From Ostreococcus lucimarinus (lineage: Eukaryota), in the NCBI GenBank assembly GCA_000092065.1, contig CP000587.1: 64,000 nt of DNA; one strand, written 5' to 3'. The notes below the pieces were generated by a model that saw nothing but the letters and a program-made list of their open reading frames with translations, made no database searches and was not told the origin of the DNA. How positions within the stretch are numbered: position 1 is the stretch's first letter; each line of letters starts with the position of its first letter. Below, piece by piece: positions 12,233-17,569 of the stretch. The translations under genes were made by a program, and so were the position numbers.

Positions 12233-12826
12233 TCACGGACCCGGGTACGTGCAAATCCCCACCTGCGCCACGGGTCGGCACGACGCGCCCTTCGGACATC
12301 CTCCGTTCGGCGCGTCGTCTCTCGGATTACACACCAACGCGCATCGGTTCGGTTTATCGCTCCCCGGCGTCTGCAGCACGCACATCCCTCGCGCCGTCGC
12401 CCCTCGATACGGATCTTTCGGGCACGGCGACGCCACCGAGCACGACGGCGAGCAGAAATCTCCCGGCACGCCCTGAATCTGCACCTTCATCTCCGTCGCC
12501 AGGCACGCCCGCCTCGCGGGATCGCCGTACGGCTTCGACCGCCCTCTCGGTTTCGGTCCCGGCGCCGCGAGCGCGCCGACCGCGTCCATGATCTCCGCCG
12601 CCGTCTTCGCGAGCGCACCGAGCGCGCCGAGCGCGTCCGCGCGCGTTCGCGCGCCGTCGAGCGCGCGCGCTGGATCCGCGTTCGCCATCGCGTCGTCGTT
12701 CAGCGCGACCGTCGTCGCGGTCGCGGTCGCGGTCGCGGTCAGCGTCAGCGTCAGCGTCAGCGTCAGCGTCAGCGCGAGCGCGCGGACCGTCGCGCGGGCG
12801 CGCGTCGCGCGGCGTCGCGTCGGCAT
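12233..12826 (-). CDS. Cysteine-rich putative secreted protein; N-terminal hydrophobic (LT)n/(AT)n stretch encoded by a hexanucleotide microsatellite
   Basis: ATG at 12826-12824. Predicted N-terminus is RRR-rich followed by ALALTLTLTLTLTLTATATATATTVAL. C-terminal 90 aa contain 12 Cys (CSPSCSVASPCPKD..CALVCNP..GGCPKGASCRP..GICTYPGP). Confidence 0.45.
   Translation of the reverse strand: MPTRRRATRARATVRALALTLTLTLTLTLTATATATATTVALNDDAMANADPARALDGARTRADALGALGALAKTAAEIMDAVGALAAPGPKPRGRSKPYGDPARRACLATEMKVQIQGVPGDFCSPSCSVASPCPKDPYRGATARGMCVLQTPGSDKPNRCALVCNPRDDAPNGGCPKGASCRPVAQVGICTYPGP
12716..12776. repeat. Compound hexanucleotide microsatellite (GCGGTC)n(CAGCGT)n inside the 5' coding region of the 12233-12826 gene
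   Basis: Read directly: cgcggtcgcggtcgcggtcgcggtcagcgtcagcgtcagcgtcagcgtcagcgtcagcg. Confidence 0.9.
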
Positions 12827-13020
12827 CGCCGTCGTCGTCGCCGAGTGCGGGCCGGCGCGTCTTCGCTCTCATATTTCTATTTCGAAACCTACCTCGTGAT
12901 AATACGCGATGCTCGATCGTACTGTGGAGCCCGACTAACTAAGTAACCCTTCGAAGTCTTTCGGGCGCCGGTGTCGCATCATATTCCGCCTCGCGCGACC
13001 CGCGCGCGAGTTTCGCGAGG

Positions 13021-13803
13021 ATGACGTCGATCGAAGCCTTCGCGGCGAAGAACGCGAGGTTGGACGCGATACGAAAAGAGCGCGACGCCGCGTGCGGGTG
13101 GCGCATGTGGTTCGCGTGCGCCGTCTTCTCGTTTCTGCTCGTCGGGCCGGTGGTCTCGCTGGTGCCCATGATGCGAGGCGCGGGACCGGCGTACGTGGCG
13201 ATCGAGCTCGCGATGATCGCGATGATCGCGTGGTGCGCGGTGGAATACGGGCACAGAAGGGCGGTTTGGTTCATTTGCATCGCGCGGGGAGTGTGCGTGA
13301 CGTTCGAGAAGACGGAAGGCTTTCGAGCTTGGGCGACGCGGGCTCCGATGACGTTTGCCATCGTTTTCGTCGCGTTGCACGGTTTCATCACGTACCTGGG
13401 GTTAGATCCGACGTTATCGAAAGGAGAGCTGGCGGACATTCTTCTCGCTGTATTATCGATACTGGCGGTCATGTTTGTACTGCTGATGACGAAGAATTTG
13501 TGCGACATCGAGGGCGCGAATGCGCTGCTGACGGTGCCCATGTTTGTCTATTTTTTCGACGATGACGACATCTTAGTCGAGCGCGGTTTCGCCACGGTTT
13601 CTTTCGCTGTTTTGGCCAAGTACGTGCTGATCGATCGCAAAGATGAAAAGATGGCTCTGCAGAAATTTTCGTGGAATGAAATTCACGCGTTACACGGCGA
13701 ATCGGCGAATACAGACGGTGACTCGGCGTATCGGCGACCCACGCTCATCGATGGGATCCGCTTGGTGGCTTTTTTGAAAATTTACAAAGATTTGGAATCT
13801 TAA
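13021..13803 (+). CDS. Hypothetical multi-pass membrane protein
   Basis: ATG at 13021. At least 5 hydrophobic helices (e.g. WFACAVFSFLLVGPVVSLVPMM, LADILLAVLSILAVMFVLLMT). No family recognised. Confidence 0.55.
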   Translation: MTSIEAFAAKNARLDAIRKERDAACGWRMWFACAVFSFLLVGPVVSLVPMMRGAGPAYVAIELAMIAMIAWCAVEYGHRRAVWFICIARGVCVTFEKTEGFRAWATRAPMTFAIVFVALHGFITYLGLDPTLSKGELADILLAVLSILAVMFVLLMTKNLCDIEGANALLTVPMFVYFFDDDDILVERGFATVSFAVLAKYVLIDRKDEKMALQKFSWNEIHALHGESANTDGDSAYRRPTLIDGIRLVAFLKIYKDLES

Positions 13804-13834: not shown

Positions 13835-14779
13835 CTAATCACTGAGCTGCAATTCGCCGCATGCAGTGATGGCGACTTGGCCGAGAGGTTGACCCGATTC
13901 GGTTCCGACGGCTTCACACGCGGCGACGACATCCATACCTTCTAATACGCGTCCGAACACCACGTGCTTGTCATCCAAGCTCGGCGCTGGCGCGGTTGTG
14001 ATGAAAAATTGCGATCCATTCGTGTTTGGTCCCCGATTAGCCATGGACAACACACCTGCGTCGTCGTGTGATATCCCAAACGCCTCGTCGTCGAAATCTT
14101 CGCCGTACACGCTCTCACCTCCTTGTCCGTTCTGCAGCGTGAAATCTCCACCCTGACACACGAACCCTTTGACTATTCTATGCAAACACGACCCTTCGTA
14201 CGTTAATTTCTTTCCACTCTTCGCGCTCAGACCCTTCTCTCCCGTGCAAAGCGCTCTAAAATTTTCCACCGTCTTTGGCGCGTGCTTTCCGTACAACCCA
14301 AACACGATTCGCCCTCTCGCCTTTCCATTCACGCTGACGTCAAAGTAACACTTACACGTCACCGTGACGTCTCCCGGGGGTGGTAAATCGCTCTCTAACA
14401 CTTTCTCCCACGCGTCGTATCGGTTCGCCTTTTCCAACGTCACCGTCACGCGCTCGAGCTCTTTCTCCCAGTAGCACCCGTCGACGTCCACCGCGCTCGG
14501 AAACGCGCCCTCGACGACGGCGACGCCGTCATCCAGCGTGCAAACGCGCATGTGATCGCTGAAAATCTTCACGTCGAGCACCGCGCGCGGGATGTCGCGC
14601 GGGAGAGTGATTTCGAGCTCGACTTCGGAATGTCCCGGTGGCGCTTTGACTTTGACGCGCACGTCGTCGACGTGTCTCAACAGCGCCTCGGCGGCGCGCG
14701 AGAGTGAGCGGTGACGATGGTTCGACGCCCGAGATGCGCTCGCACGGAGCGCGCGTGGGACGTCGTGGGGACGCAACAT
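13835..14779 (-). CDS. Cyclophilin-type peptidyl-prolyl cis-trans isomerase with an N-terminal CS (p23/HSP20-like) domain and an organellar presequence
   Basis: ATG at 14779-14777. C-terminal 170 aa are canonical cyclophilin (FGLYGKHAPKTVENFRALCTGEKG..CLHRIVKGFVCQGGDF..MANRGPNTNGSQFFITT..HVVFGRV). Residues ~40-125 fit a CS-domain beta-sandwich pattern (EVELEITLP..VLDVKIFSDHMRV..GCYWEKELERVTVTLEKA..WEKV). Confidence 0.85.
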   Translation of the reverse strand: MLRPHDVPRALRASASRASNHRHRSLSRAAEALLRHVDDVRVKVKAPPGHSEVELEITLPRDIPRAVLDVKIFSDHMRVCTLDDGVAVVEGAFPSAVDVDGCYWEKELERVTVTLEKANRYDAWEKVLESDLPPPGDVTVTCKCYFDVSVNGKARGRIVFGLYGKHAPKTVENFRALCTGEKGLSAKSGKKLTYEGSCLHRIVKGFVCQGGDFTLQNGQGGESVYGEDFDDEAFGISHDDAGVLSMANRGPNTNGSQFFITTAPAPSLDDKHVVFGRVLEGMDVVAACEAVGTESGQPLGQVAITACGELQLSD

Positions 14780-14839
14780 GGAGGGACGAGTTGTGCGGAG
14801 ACGGCTGCGCAGAAGAGGGAGTGATTTACAAATGCGCGG

Positions 14840-17272
14840 CTAAACGACGAGCGTGCTGTACCTATCCGCGGTGCCGTCCTCTACTTTGTGTTTCTGCTGT
14901 CGGATATGTGTGAGGGTGTTCGCGTACGATTGTTCGACGTCGCGTAAGGCGCCGATGGATTCGGCGTTGCGAACGTCGCCCACGCTCGACAGCTCGGTGT
15001 TGATCATGTCGATGAGCGCTTGCAATGCCTCGACGGTGACGGAAGTACATCCCTCAGGAGTTTTATCGTAAAAGTACAGGTATTTGTTCAGGATGCCGAC
15101 GTAGAGCCCGAGAGCTTCGATTCGGTTCGCCGCGTTGCCGCCAAAGGTGTCTCGCACGGCGTTGGCTATTTTCACCGATTTCTTCAAGCACGACGCCACG
15201 GAATCGCTATCTTTCACCGTCTCGGTCCAAAATAAGTGTGCGCACGTGTACGCTCCCACGCATTGATCTGGTTTCTTCAGCAAACGCGCGCTATAGCCTG
15301 TAGTTTTGTGCACCAAAGATTCGCGGCTGTCGGCACCAAAGACATTCACTTTGTGCAACGTGCCGATAATTATGAAGAGCAAATTCACCTGTTTCTTCGT
15401 ATCGGTGATGTTTTCTTCGTAAAGTACGAAAGCGCGTTCGAAGAACTCGTACGCGATGGACTCTAAGTTTGCCACCGCGGCAAGTTGTGCGGCTTCGAGG
15501 AAGAGCTTCAGCGCCTTTTCGTGACGTCCGGCCACCTCCGTGAGCGCGGTGATGCTCTTGTGCACAAAGTGAAGCGACTTCTTTAGCCACGGTGACTTGA
15601 CCTCTATCGGCGTCGTAAATGAAATCGCTTCTTTGTCGTCATTGTTCGCATCGGCGGGCACCTCGTCGTCATCCTTCAAAGCCGCAGCCTTTTCTGAAGG
15701 CTTTTCGGCGCGCTCGGCTAGGACAATATCTCTCCCACAAGCGATGCCCGCAAACACGAGCGCGGGAAATGTGTGACGAATTCGCCGAGGTCCGCCTTTC
15801 AGCAAAATGTCGTACGCGGTGTTCAGCATTTCGAGTTGAAGCTCGTGATTATCTTCGGGAGCCTTGATCAAATGTACCACGCGTGCCACGACGTTTTGTT
15901 CCTCGGCAATCGCGGCGCTTCGCTCTTTCTCGACATCTTCCATCGCCTGTGAAGCTTCCTTTGCATCCGCGGACACGACACAGTCTATGAAGTCGTAAAG
16001 CATTTTCACGTGATCCACCGTCGTCAGCGTGCTTCTATTCTTCACCAAAGTTTGCACCACGCCGAGTGCGACTTTTTTCTTCGTGTCTTCGTCCAGCAGC
16101 GCGATGACTTTCGGATACGACTTCAACGAGAGTACGACGGACAGCTCGCACGATTCTAATGGATCGCTAAGTAACGTTGAAAGCTGCTGCGCGACCTCTG
16201 GATCCGTGATTGGAAGTTTACTCTGCAAGGAGTTCGCCAGTGCGAGCAAAATGTCGTCCAAAGTACCCGCTTCGGTGATTTGCAGCTTTCTCGCAAACGC
16301 CATCAACGCCGCGTACATGCCTATAATTTCCTTCGCCGGTACGTCATCGTGTGCTCCAATGATCGCTTGGCAGCATTCAAACGATTTCGGGAACACATCC
16401 GCGGCCTCAAACTCTGACTTTGCCTCGGGAGTTTCCTCGGCGTAACTCAGCAACCGCCCAAGAAGCGCGTTGAGAATCGAACCGACTCGCACATTCGCGC
16501 GCAACATCGACATCGTGGAGAACACTTCTTCGAACGTCGCCAGGTGATATTCGTCCGGAAACACCTGGATGAGTACGTCCAACAAGTACGGCTGTGCGAG
16601 CTCGTCCTTGCAATTCACGACCTGTTCCAGAATGCGCGGTAACACTGTCTCGCGATACAGCTGCAAATCCACGCCCTCGAGCTGAGACAGCGCGAGCAAG
16701 TTCTTCCCCACGAGATCTCGTAGCTCTTCCCGCTCGCCCTCTCGACGCTTCTTCCCGTTTGACGGTCCGATGTGTTGCATACGAACCCACAACTTGTTCA
16801 TCTCGGTGAAATTTTGCAACAAAAACTCCACCGCGTCGTCGATGTTCCCTCCCTCGCCTTCGTACCGCGATCCTTTATCCGGCAACAACCCCTTACTCAT
16901 CTGACTCAAATACGCTCTCAAGAACAACCCGTGCATCGGTTGCTGCACCCCGCGCGTCATCTCCACCAAATCCATCAACACGTCCCTCGCGCTCCCCTCT
17001 CCCAGCTCCACGTACGTCGCCCCAACCGTGATCAGCAGGTACAATCGCGGCAGTATGTTCCCCGCGTGTTGCACTAACTCGTACAACTCCACGCACGACC
17101 GTCCGTGTCGAGACTTATCCCCAAAGAACCGTCGCAGGTGCATCAACTCGTCGCTCGCCGCGATGTACAGCTCGTAGTACCCGCGCGGCGCCGGCGTCGT
17201 CGCCCGCAGTTCGCCCAGCATCAAGCTCGCGCACTTCAGCGCCTCGCGCAGGTTATCCTCGTCCTGATCCAT
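14840..17272 (-). CDS. VPS35: Vacuolar protein sorting-associated protein 35 (retromer core subunit VPS35)
   Basis: End-to-end colinearity with VPS35 (ASLMLGELR, YYELYIAASDEL, PRLYLLITVG, EMNKLWVRMQH, VNCKDELAQPYL, QVFPDEYHL, KKPDQCVGAYTCAHLFW). ORF-track start 17341 is TTG. First ATG is at 17272-17270 (MDQDEDNL). Confidence 0.9.
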   Translation of the reverse strand: MDQDEDNLREALKCASLMLGELRATTPAPRGYYELYIAASDELMHLRRFFGDKSRHGRSCVELYELVQHAGNILPRLYLLITVGATYVELGEGSARDVLMDLVEMTRGVQQPMHGLFLRAYLSQMSKGLLPDKGSRYEGEGGNIDDAVEFLLQNFTEMNKLWVRMQHIGPSNGKKRREGEREELRDLVGKNLLALSQLEGVDLQLYRETVLPRILEQVVNCKDELAQPYLLDVLIQVFPDEYHLATFEEVFSTMSMLRANVRVGSILNALLGRLLSYAEETPEAKSEFEAADVFPKSFECCQAIIGAHDDVPAKEIIGMYAALMAFARKLQITEAGTLDDILLALANSLQSKLPITDPEVAQQLSTLLSDPLESCELSVVLSLKSYPKVIALLDEDTKKKVALGVVQTLVKNRSTLTTVDHVKMLYDFIDCVVSADAKEASQAMEDVEKERSAAIAEEQNVVARVVHLIKAPEDNHELQLEMLNTAYDILLKGGPRRIRHTFPALVFAGIACGRDIVLAERAEKPSEKAAALKDDDEVPADANNDDKEAISFTTPIEVKSPWLKKSLHFVHKSITALTEVAGRHEKALKLFLEAAQLAAVANLESIAYEFFERAFVLYEENITDTKKQVNLLFIIIGTLHKVNVFGADSRESLVHKTTGYSARLLKKPDQCVGAYTCAHLFWTETVKDSDSVASCLKKSVKIANAVRDTFGGNAANRIEALGLYVGILNKYLYFYDKTPEGCTSVTVEALQALIDMINTELSSVGDVRNAESIGALRDVEQSYANTLTHIRQQKHKVEDGTADRYSTLVV

Positions 17273-17569
17273 CGCGATCCGATCGTCGTCGTCGTCAGTC
17301 GTCGTCGAGCGCGCGTCGCCAGTCGCGTCGCGTCGAATCAATCAATCGAATCAATCGCGCAATCATCGCGTCGCCGTCGCGCGTCGCGTCGCGCACCGCC
17401 GCCCGTTTCATGCGAAACGCGTGCTCTTTCACCGACGCCTTCGCCTCGTCCAACCACCGCGCCGCGCGCGCCGGATCGGCGTCGCGCGCGTCCGCGCGCT
17501 GCATCGTCGAGGAGTGCGGCGTCGTCGGCACTCCACCGCGCGACGCGACGACTCGCGACGACGGCGACG

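Follow-up and report, generated by a model that had tools for sequence, protein, structure and literature searches.

Gene Organization of the Locus

The window analysed is a 64,000 nucleotide stretch of the Ostreococcus lucimarinus genome (assembly GCA_000092065.1, contig CP000587.1). It was found to carry, on its minus strand, a complete ORF for a 314-aa protein which consists of an N-terminal leader, a CS domain, a short linker, and a cyclophilin domain (Table 1). The identical protein is present on 488 contigs in public data.

Table 1. Position of the CS-cyclophilin gene, its domains and its upstream spacer within the window.
Feature	Coordinates	Strand	Basis or remark
Complete 314-aa ORF (leader, CS, linker, and cyclophilin)	13835..14779	minus	Stop codon at 13835-13837
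Leader, residues 1-33, disordered, Arg/Ser/Ala-rich, ending x-A-L-L	14681..14779	minus	pLDDT, composition, alignment
Predicted NudC-type CS (HSP20-like) beta-sandwich, residues 34-130	14390..14680	minus	
Linker D-L-P-P-P-G-D-x-T-V-T, residues 131-141	14357..14389	minus	Alignment of 20 fusions; pLDDT
Cyclophilin-type PPIase, "divergent loop" subgroup, residues 142-310	13850..14356	minus	PF00160, PDB relatives, CypA alignment
"Divergent loop" insertion relative to human CypA, residues ~184-191	14207..14230	minus	CypA alignment
Met77 codon, start of RefSeq model XP_001418969.1	14549..14551	minus	Identity to residues 77-314
Spacer from Vps35 stop to cyclophilin ATG, 60 nt	14780..14839	minus	ORF positions

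The upstream neighbour is Vps35 (14840..17341, minus strand), whose stop codon lies in the same frame as the cyclophilin ATG. In the spacer between the two, no start codon lies in frame with the cyclophilin. This adjacency, with spacers of 46-109 nt, is kept in four related Ostreococcus-like loci (L001, L004, L005, and L006) and is absent at locus L007, which was taken as Micromonas-like. The promoter and 5′ UTR of the cyclophilin gene must overlap the 3′ end of Vps35, or else the two genes must be co-transcribed. Readthrough of the Vps35 stop codon, giving a Vps35-cyclophilin fusion, was considered and rejected; the two genes are in frame in three of five related loci and the spacer lengths vary, which fits chance and makes readthrough unlikely.

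On the other side, a convergent hydrophobic ORF of 260 aa (13021-13803, plus strand) ends 31 nt from the cyclophilin stop codon and gave no Pfam match. At the corresponding place, the O. tauri-like and related loci L002, L003, L005, and L006 carry a gene of 253-271 aa that lacks annotation, and locus L001 has a 390-aa call. Positions 12714-12822 hold perfect hexanucleotide microsatellites (GTCGCG x4.5 and GTCAGC x6.2) together with related 15- and 18-nt repeats, within a stretch of 74% GC (12600-12899), and it is to these repeats that the low-complexity ORF translations TLTLTL, RGRGRG, and QRQRQR are due.

Gene Model

The RefSeq protein of O. lucimarinus CCE9901 (XP_001418969.1; P0134), a member of the 90% identity cluster of the window protein, has 238 aa, which match ORF residues 77-314 without a difference. 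As it starts at Met77, it lacks the leader and the initial CS strands. Met1 is the sole Met upstream of the CS domain, with an in-frame stop 20 codons before it. The opening strands of the CS sandwich, modelled with confidence by AlphaFold2, are made up of residues 34-76, which also align with the CS domain of every relative. In O. tauri the annotated ortholog has its full length of 311 aa, no ortholog of another species in an alignment of 20 fusions has a Met at the position of Met77, and complete transcriptome ORFs of other taxa contain the entire fusion. On the basis of this conservation the 314-aa model is judged to be the correct one and the RefSeq model to be N-terminally truncated. A gene-model artefact, in which translation truly begins at Met77 or the segment before it belongs to another gene or a UTR, so that no intact CS domain is made, would agree with the RefSeq entry and is effectively refuted by the same observations; the preliminary description of this DNA had itself raised a separate gene or 5′ UTR, against which the whole-fusion transcriptome ORFs count.

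CS Domain

When the full protein was searched against Pfam, the CS family (PF04969) matched residues 51-117 at 22.0 bits, against a gathering cutoff of 21.3, and N-terminal fragments scored 23.8-24.9 bits. The N-terminal 141 residues alone gave weak NudC matches among PDB sequences (E about 0.05). As the evidence from the single sequence is weak, independent support was needed for the assignment. All 19 excised N-domains of the family matched PF04969 (best E = 1e-15), and residues W104 and W124 are invariant in the N-domains of the 20 aligned fusions. An AlphaFold2 model built on the full alignment (mean pLDDT 83, pTM 0.70) has a compact antiparallel beta-sandwich, superposable on solved CS domains, with pLDDT values of 86-96 for the strands between residues 34 and 117. 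The CS domain which the preliminary description had proposed for the segment upstream of the cyclophilin is thus upheld, both by the family profile matches and by the AlphaFold check it had called for. The limits found (CS ~34-130, cyclophilin ~142-310) are close to those it had predicted (~40-125 and 140-310).

With regard to subtype, a profile of the family N-domains matched NudC (E = 5.5e-19), NUDCD3/KIAA1068 (1.1e-13), NUDCD2 (3.7e-11), and the E. cuniculi NudC homolog (5.5e-9). CacyBP was a distant next match (2.7e-4), and neither p23 nor Sgt1 chains reached E <= 0.01. The NudC motifs Y-x-W-x-Q, K-G-K-D, V-G-x-K-G-Q, and S-x-W-x-I-E are common to those family members which have no leader. 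The top structural neighbours of the CS model include the Hsp90-bound CS domains of Sgt1 (2xcm, 9q8o) and p23/Sba1 (7y04, 2cg9). In contrast to p23/Sba1, no unstructured acidic tail follows the CS domain here. By its sequence affinities the domain is classed as NudC-type (p23_NUDC_like) and not p23-type, and the earlier label "p23-like" is replaced. The protein is nevertheless no NudC ortholog, as it has neither the N-terminal coiled coil nor the C-terminal helices of NudC, NUDCD3 (NudCL), and NUDCD2 (NudCL2), and an enzyme domain follows its CS domain; no helix is predicted before the CS domain, residues 1-30 being disordered, and what comes after it is the linker and the cyclophilin. A role of the LIS1/dynein kind is not implied for the CS-cyclophilin.

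The N-terminal part of the Ostreococcus protein, used as a query, returned 11 matches at E <= 1e-3 among 1.8 billion representatives, which indicates that the CS domain diverges too fast for single-sequence searches. A word-indexed homolog search with the N-domain alignment gave three matches and contributed no further information.

Linker and Cyclophilin Domain

The linker is conserved in 20/20 aligned fusions from distant lineages, T141 being invariant and P135 and D137 nearly so. Its family form is E-S-D-L-P-x-P-G-D-x-T-V-T (alignment A1), which runs directly into the cyclophilin domain, and it was modelled by AlphaFold2 with a pLDDT of about 87. That distant members have this linker in common points to a single old fusion event behind the family.

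The cyclophilin domain was matched by PF00160 over residues 145-308 (E = 2e-45; 155.3 bits against a cutoff of 21.7; profile positions 1-158 of 159). Its closest solved relatives are the divergent-loop cyclophilins TvCyP2 and TvCyP1 of Trichomonas, wheat CypA, Citrus CsCyp, C. elegans Cyp3, and bovine Cyp40 (1ihg, E = 2.2e-58). When aligned with human CypA, the equivalents of R55, F60, Q63, A101, N102, Q111, F113, L122, and H126 are all kept, which bears out the PPIase domain of the preliminary description with its catalytic residues intact. Beside the active site, the Ostreococcus group has the substitutions M61V, A103R, and W121S (CypA numbering); at position 121 the majority of the other family members have His, as does Cyp40. 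The divergent-loop insertion, which follows the G-F-G of CypA, is of eight residues in the Ostreococcus group and seven in leaderless members. A pair of Cys residues (C178 and C307), located outside the loop, is invariant in the alignment; conserved Cys residues are also found in the divergent-loop type domain of plant CYP20-3. As the nearest solved cyclophilins are active divergent-loop enzymes, the protein is predicted to be an active PPIase, and the W121S substitution suggests that its affinity for cyclosporin would be weak.

Residue 199 (14183-14185, minus strand), which corresponds to Phe53 of CypA and adjoins the catalytic Arg, is Leu in the window protein and in the RefSeq protein of O. 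lucimarinus (S-C-L-H-R), while Phe is nearly invariant in the family; a 99%-identical environmental variant (P0001) has Phe (S-C-F-H-R).

A Foldseek search of the full model against the PDB found single cyclophilin domains only (at most about 187 aligned columns), with 1ihg and 1iip among them, and accordingly no solved structure with the two-domain CS-cyclophilin architecture. In Pfam at E <= 10, Pro_isomerase and CS were the sole families and no TPR was detected. The protein thus has the divergent-loop domain of the Cyp40-type large immunophilins and not their TPR domain, which leaves no place for an MEEVD-clamp mechanism.

Distribution of the CS-Cyclophilin Family

Dozens of homologs, about 270-340 aa in length, came up in the search, and for these PF00160 and PF04969 are both present in precomputed annotation. 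Among green algae, the fusion was found with a leader in O. lucimarinus, O. tauri, Chloropicon roscoffensis, and Pedinophyceae sp. YPF-701, and without one in Pyramimonas. It was also found in the glaucophyte Cyanoptyche, in the alveolates Chromera velia and the dinoflagellates Pelagodinium, Yihiella, and Dinoflagellata sp. MGD, in the chlorarachniophytes Lotharella and Chlorarachnion, in the Euglenozoa (Euglena gracilis and the heterotrophic diplonemid Artemidia motanka), and on many marine metagenome and metatranscriptome contigs. As many of these members come from transcriptomes, the fusion is transcribed as a single ORF. The survey of Mamiellophyceae and other algae that had been recommended therefore recovered both the architecture and the linker widely, and the fusion is peculiar neither to this genome nor to the Mamiellophyceae.

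Catalogued orthologs or homologs, such as those from O. tauri (Q014U0/XP_003080422.1), Chromera velia (a UniRef entry), and Chloropicon roscoffensis (WZN59496.1) share the layout of CS domain, linker, and cyclophilin, with the same linker motif and 46-74% identity over the full length; the leader is confined to the green-algal group. Their names are automatic only, that of O. tauri being already "HSP20-like chaperone"/peptidylprolyl isomerase. Surveys of the cyclophilin repertoires of apicomplexans, oomycetes, and parasitic protozoa make no mention of a CS-cyclophilin, and none appears in a survey of T. brucei Hsp90 co-chaperones or in a review of plant NudC proteins (PMC10780334). Three of the four Chlamydomonas NudC-family entries in the supplementary table of that review could be compared, and none of the three is a cyclophilin fusion (PMC10780334). 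Literature searches by Pfam accession and by protein accession gave nothing relevant to this architecture. The earlier statement that it is not among the standard cyclophilin classes holds for the surveys searched, but the domain pair itself was already precomputed in public data. The CS-cyclophilins are an old and broadly distributed eukaryotic family which is already catalogued with both domains annotated; the literature searches found no paper on the architecture and no functional study of any member. Most of its members are leaderless and presumably cytosolic.

N-Terminal Leader

Of 69 non-redundant full-length fusions, 48 begin with the CS domain itself, and in 21 an N-terminal extension of at least 20 residues precedes it. 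Twenty of these 21 group together, apart from the leaderless forms, on a neighbour-joining tree which has no support values and whose midpoint root falls inside the leader group. The exception (P0089) has an acidic extension, unlike a leader. The leader group is made up of the Mamiellophyceae, a Chloropicon-containing group, and the Pedinophyceae, and this type of leader spans at least five green-algal lineages; a leader-bearing Chloropicon form was recovered from MMETSP, where its transcript is complete.

Leader length ranges over 30-67 residues; Arg makes up 11-26%, there are 0-2 Asp+Glu, and Ser/Thr/Ala are abundant. In the window protein there are 8 Arg+Lys against 2 Asp+Glu, and residues 1-30 have pLDDT values below 50 (AlphaFold2), in agreement with the Arg/Ser/Ala-rich leader that had been noted from the sequence. 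The leader is basic, acid-poor, unstructured, and an extension relative to the leaderless members, as is expected of a targeting peptide. Between two Ostreococcus species it diverges fast in sequence (pN = 0.55) with its composition kept. When the window was compared with the O. tauri-like locus, pS was 0.74-0.75 in both the leader and the cyclophilin domain; dS is therefore saturated and regional dN/dS ratios are uninformative on the leader.

The leaders end in a conserved (T/V)-R-A-L-L or x-A-L-L just before the first CS strand. In the AlphaFold2 model this end packs onto the CS domain as a strand. It could be an additional strand of that domain or, with an Arg at -2/-3 reminiscent of mitochondrial processing peptidase motifs, a site of processing. 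In the window the x-A-L-L lies at 14681-14695 on the minus strand (residues ~29-33; columns ~66-72 of alignment A1).

The leader is most likely a targeting peptide, and the Ostreococcus protein would then be imported into the mitochondrion or the plastid, between which neither leader composition nor hydrophobic moment discriminates. As the basic leader is restricted to one green-algal group, organelle import is suggested for that lineage, and the existence of leaderless relatives indicates that the CS-cyclophilin pair does not need it. It is distinctly unlikely that the leader is no targeting signal and that residues 1-33 are a disordered basic tail, regulatory or functionless, of a cytosolic protein. 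Such a tail would be in keeping with the poor conservation of the leader between the two Ostreococcus species and with the modelling of its end as a CS strand, by which part of it belongs to the folded protein. However, the Arg-rich, acid-poor, and Ser/Thr/Ala-rich composition is the classic signature of a targeting peptide and is retained over the whole range of lengths and lineages given above, and the domain pair does without the leader elsewhere.

Comparison with Known Systems

Cyclophilin 40 (PPID/Cpr6/Cpr7) resembles the Ostreococcus protein in having a divergent-loop cyclophilin joined to a module that interacts with a chaperone system. The module is, however, a C-terminal TPR in Cyp40 and an N-terminal CS domain here, and Cyp40 has no leader. 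Organellar cyclophilins such as plant CYP20-3/ROC4, yeast Cpr3, and mammalian CypD have an N-terminal targeting peptide and no CS domain. In trigger factor, SlyD, FkpA, and SurA, a prolyl isomerase is tethered to a polypeptide-binding module, which raises its efficiency on protein substrates. These bacterial proteins have unrelated folds and belong to other PPIase classes (FKBP or parvulin), and the resemblance is one of analogy and not of homology. NudC-family CS proteins are autonomous holdases as well as co-chaperones linked to Hsp40 and Hsp90 (PMC10780334), and the family has been associated with proteins containing beta-propeller domains (Taipale et al., as cited in PMC10780334).

Proposed Function

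On balance, we consider it probable that this is a real gene of an old family, coding for a basic leader of cleavable appearance, a NudC-type CS domain which serves as a binding module, and a catalytically competent divergent-loop cyclophilin, and that its product is imported into an organelle. Like the CS proteins of the NudC family, the CS domain may itself hold polypeptide in non-native form; alternatively, it may dock onto a partner chaperone. The tether would keep the prolyl isomerase beside folding substrates and present prolyl bonds to it, which is the logic of other enzymes that combine a PPIase with a chaperone domain. The leader would have been gained by one green-algal group (Mamiellophyceae, Chloropicon, and Pedinophyceae), and in Ostreococcus and its leader-bearing relatives the protein would probably act inside the organelle, where imported proteins must fold.

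An alternative, raised already in the preliminary description, which we regard as possible but rather unlikely is that the protein is an Hsp90 co-chaperone, the CS domain docking on Hsp90, as those of p23, Sgt1, and NudC do, and delivering the cyclophilin to Hsp90-bound clients. Such a protein would parallel Cyp40 without relying on a TPR, whether in the cytosol or, in view of the leader, on an organellar Hsp90. This reading would accord with the Hsp90-bound Sgt1 and p23/Sba1 domains among the top structural neighbours, with the divergent-loop type shared with Cyp40, with the His that most family members have at the Trp121 position and with the description of NudC-family proteins as Hsp90 co-chaperones (PMC10780334). 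Against it stand the lack of any match to p23 or Sgt1 at the sequence level, the missing p23-like tail, and the leader, which argues against a cytosolic location of the Ostreococcus protein. If the leader is a targeting peptide, the protein is not in the cytosol with Hsp90 and Cyp40, and the analogy to Cyp40 therefore weakens. Members of the NudC family reportedly also show chaperone activity that is independent of Hsp90, which likewise counts against this alternative. Recruitment to Hsp90 is a conjecture, and for the Ostreococcus protein it would need an organellar Hsp90. That the imported protein of the leader group brings its prolyl isomerase to an organellar Hsp90 paralog, as a CS-type co-chaperone, is very unlikely. 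Organellar Hsp90s are, to our knowledge, usually considered to be independent of the p23-, Sgt1-, or NudC-type cofactors of the cytosol.

It is highly improbable that the protein is a client-specific adaptor and no general holdase, with a CS domain that recognises a particular fold class, as the NudC family is associated with beta-propellers, and brings the isomerase there: the CS domain does group by sequence with NudC, NUDCD3, and NUDCD2, for which the cited beta-propeller association is a precedent (PMC10780334), but the family CS domains diverge fast, as the few matches to the N-terminal query illustrate, and a tightly co-evolving interface predicts otherwise.

The preferred reading is that of an isomerase tethered to a NudC-type binding module. 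The CS-cyclophilin is best described as a variation, so far uncharacterised, on the theme of multidomain cyclophilins, and the finding is an incremental one. Multidomain cyclophilins are usually listed with TPR, RRM, WD40, U-box, or similar partners, and a conserved fusion to a NudC-type CS domain lies outside the surveys searched. For O. lucimarinus, the longer ORF corrects the public RefSeq gene model. If coupling to Hsp90 were true after all, the leaderless protist relatives would represent a previously unrecognised, TPR-independent cytosolic route by which a PPIase is coupled to Hsp90. In the leader-bearing green-algal branch, a CS-type chaperone module may operate inside an organelle. As a fusion retained across many eukaryotic supergroups, the family is in itself evidence of the "Rosetta stone" kind for joint action of a NudC-type chaperone module and prolyl isomerisation.
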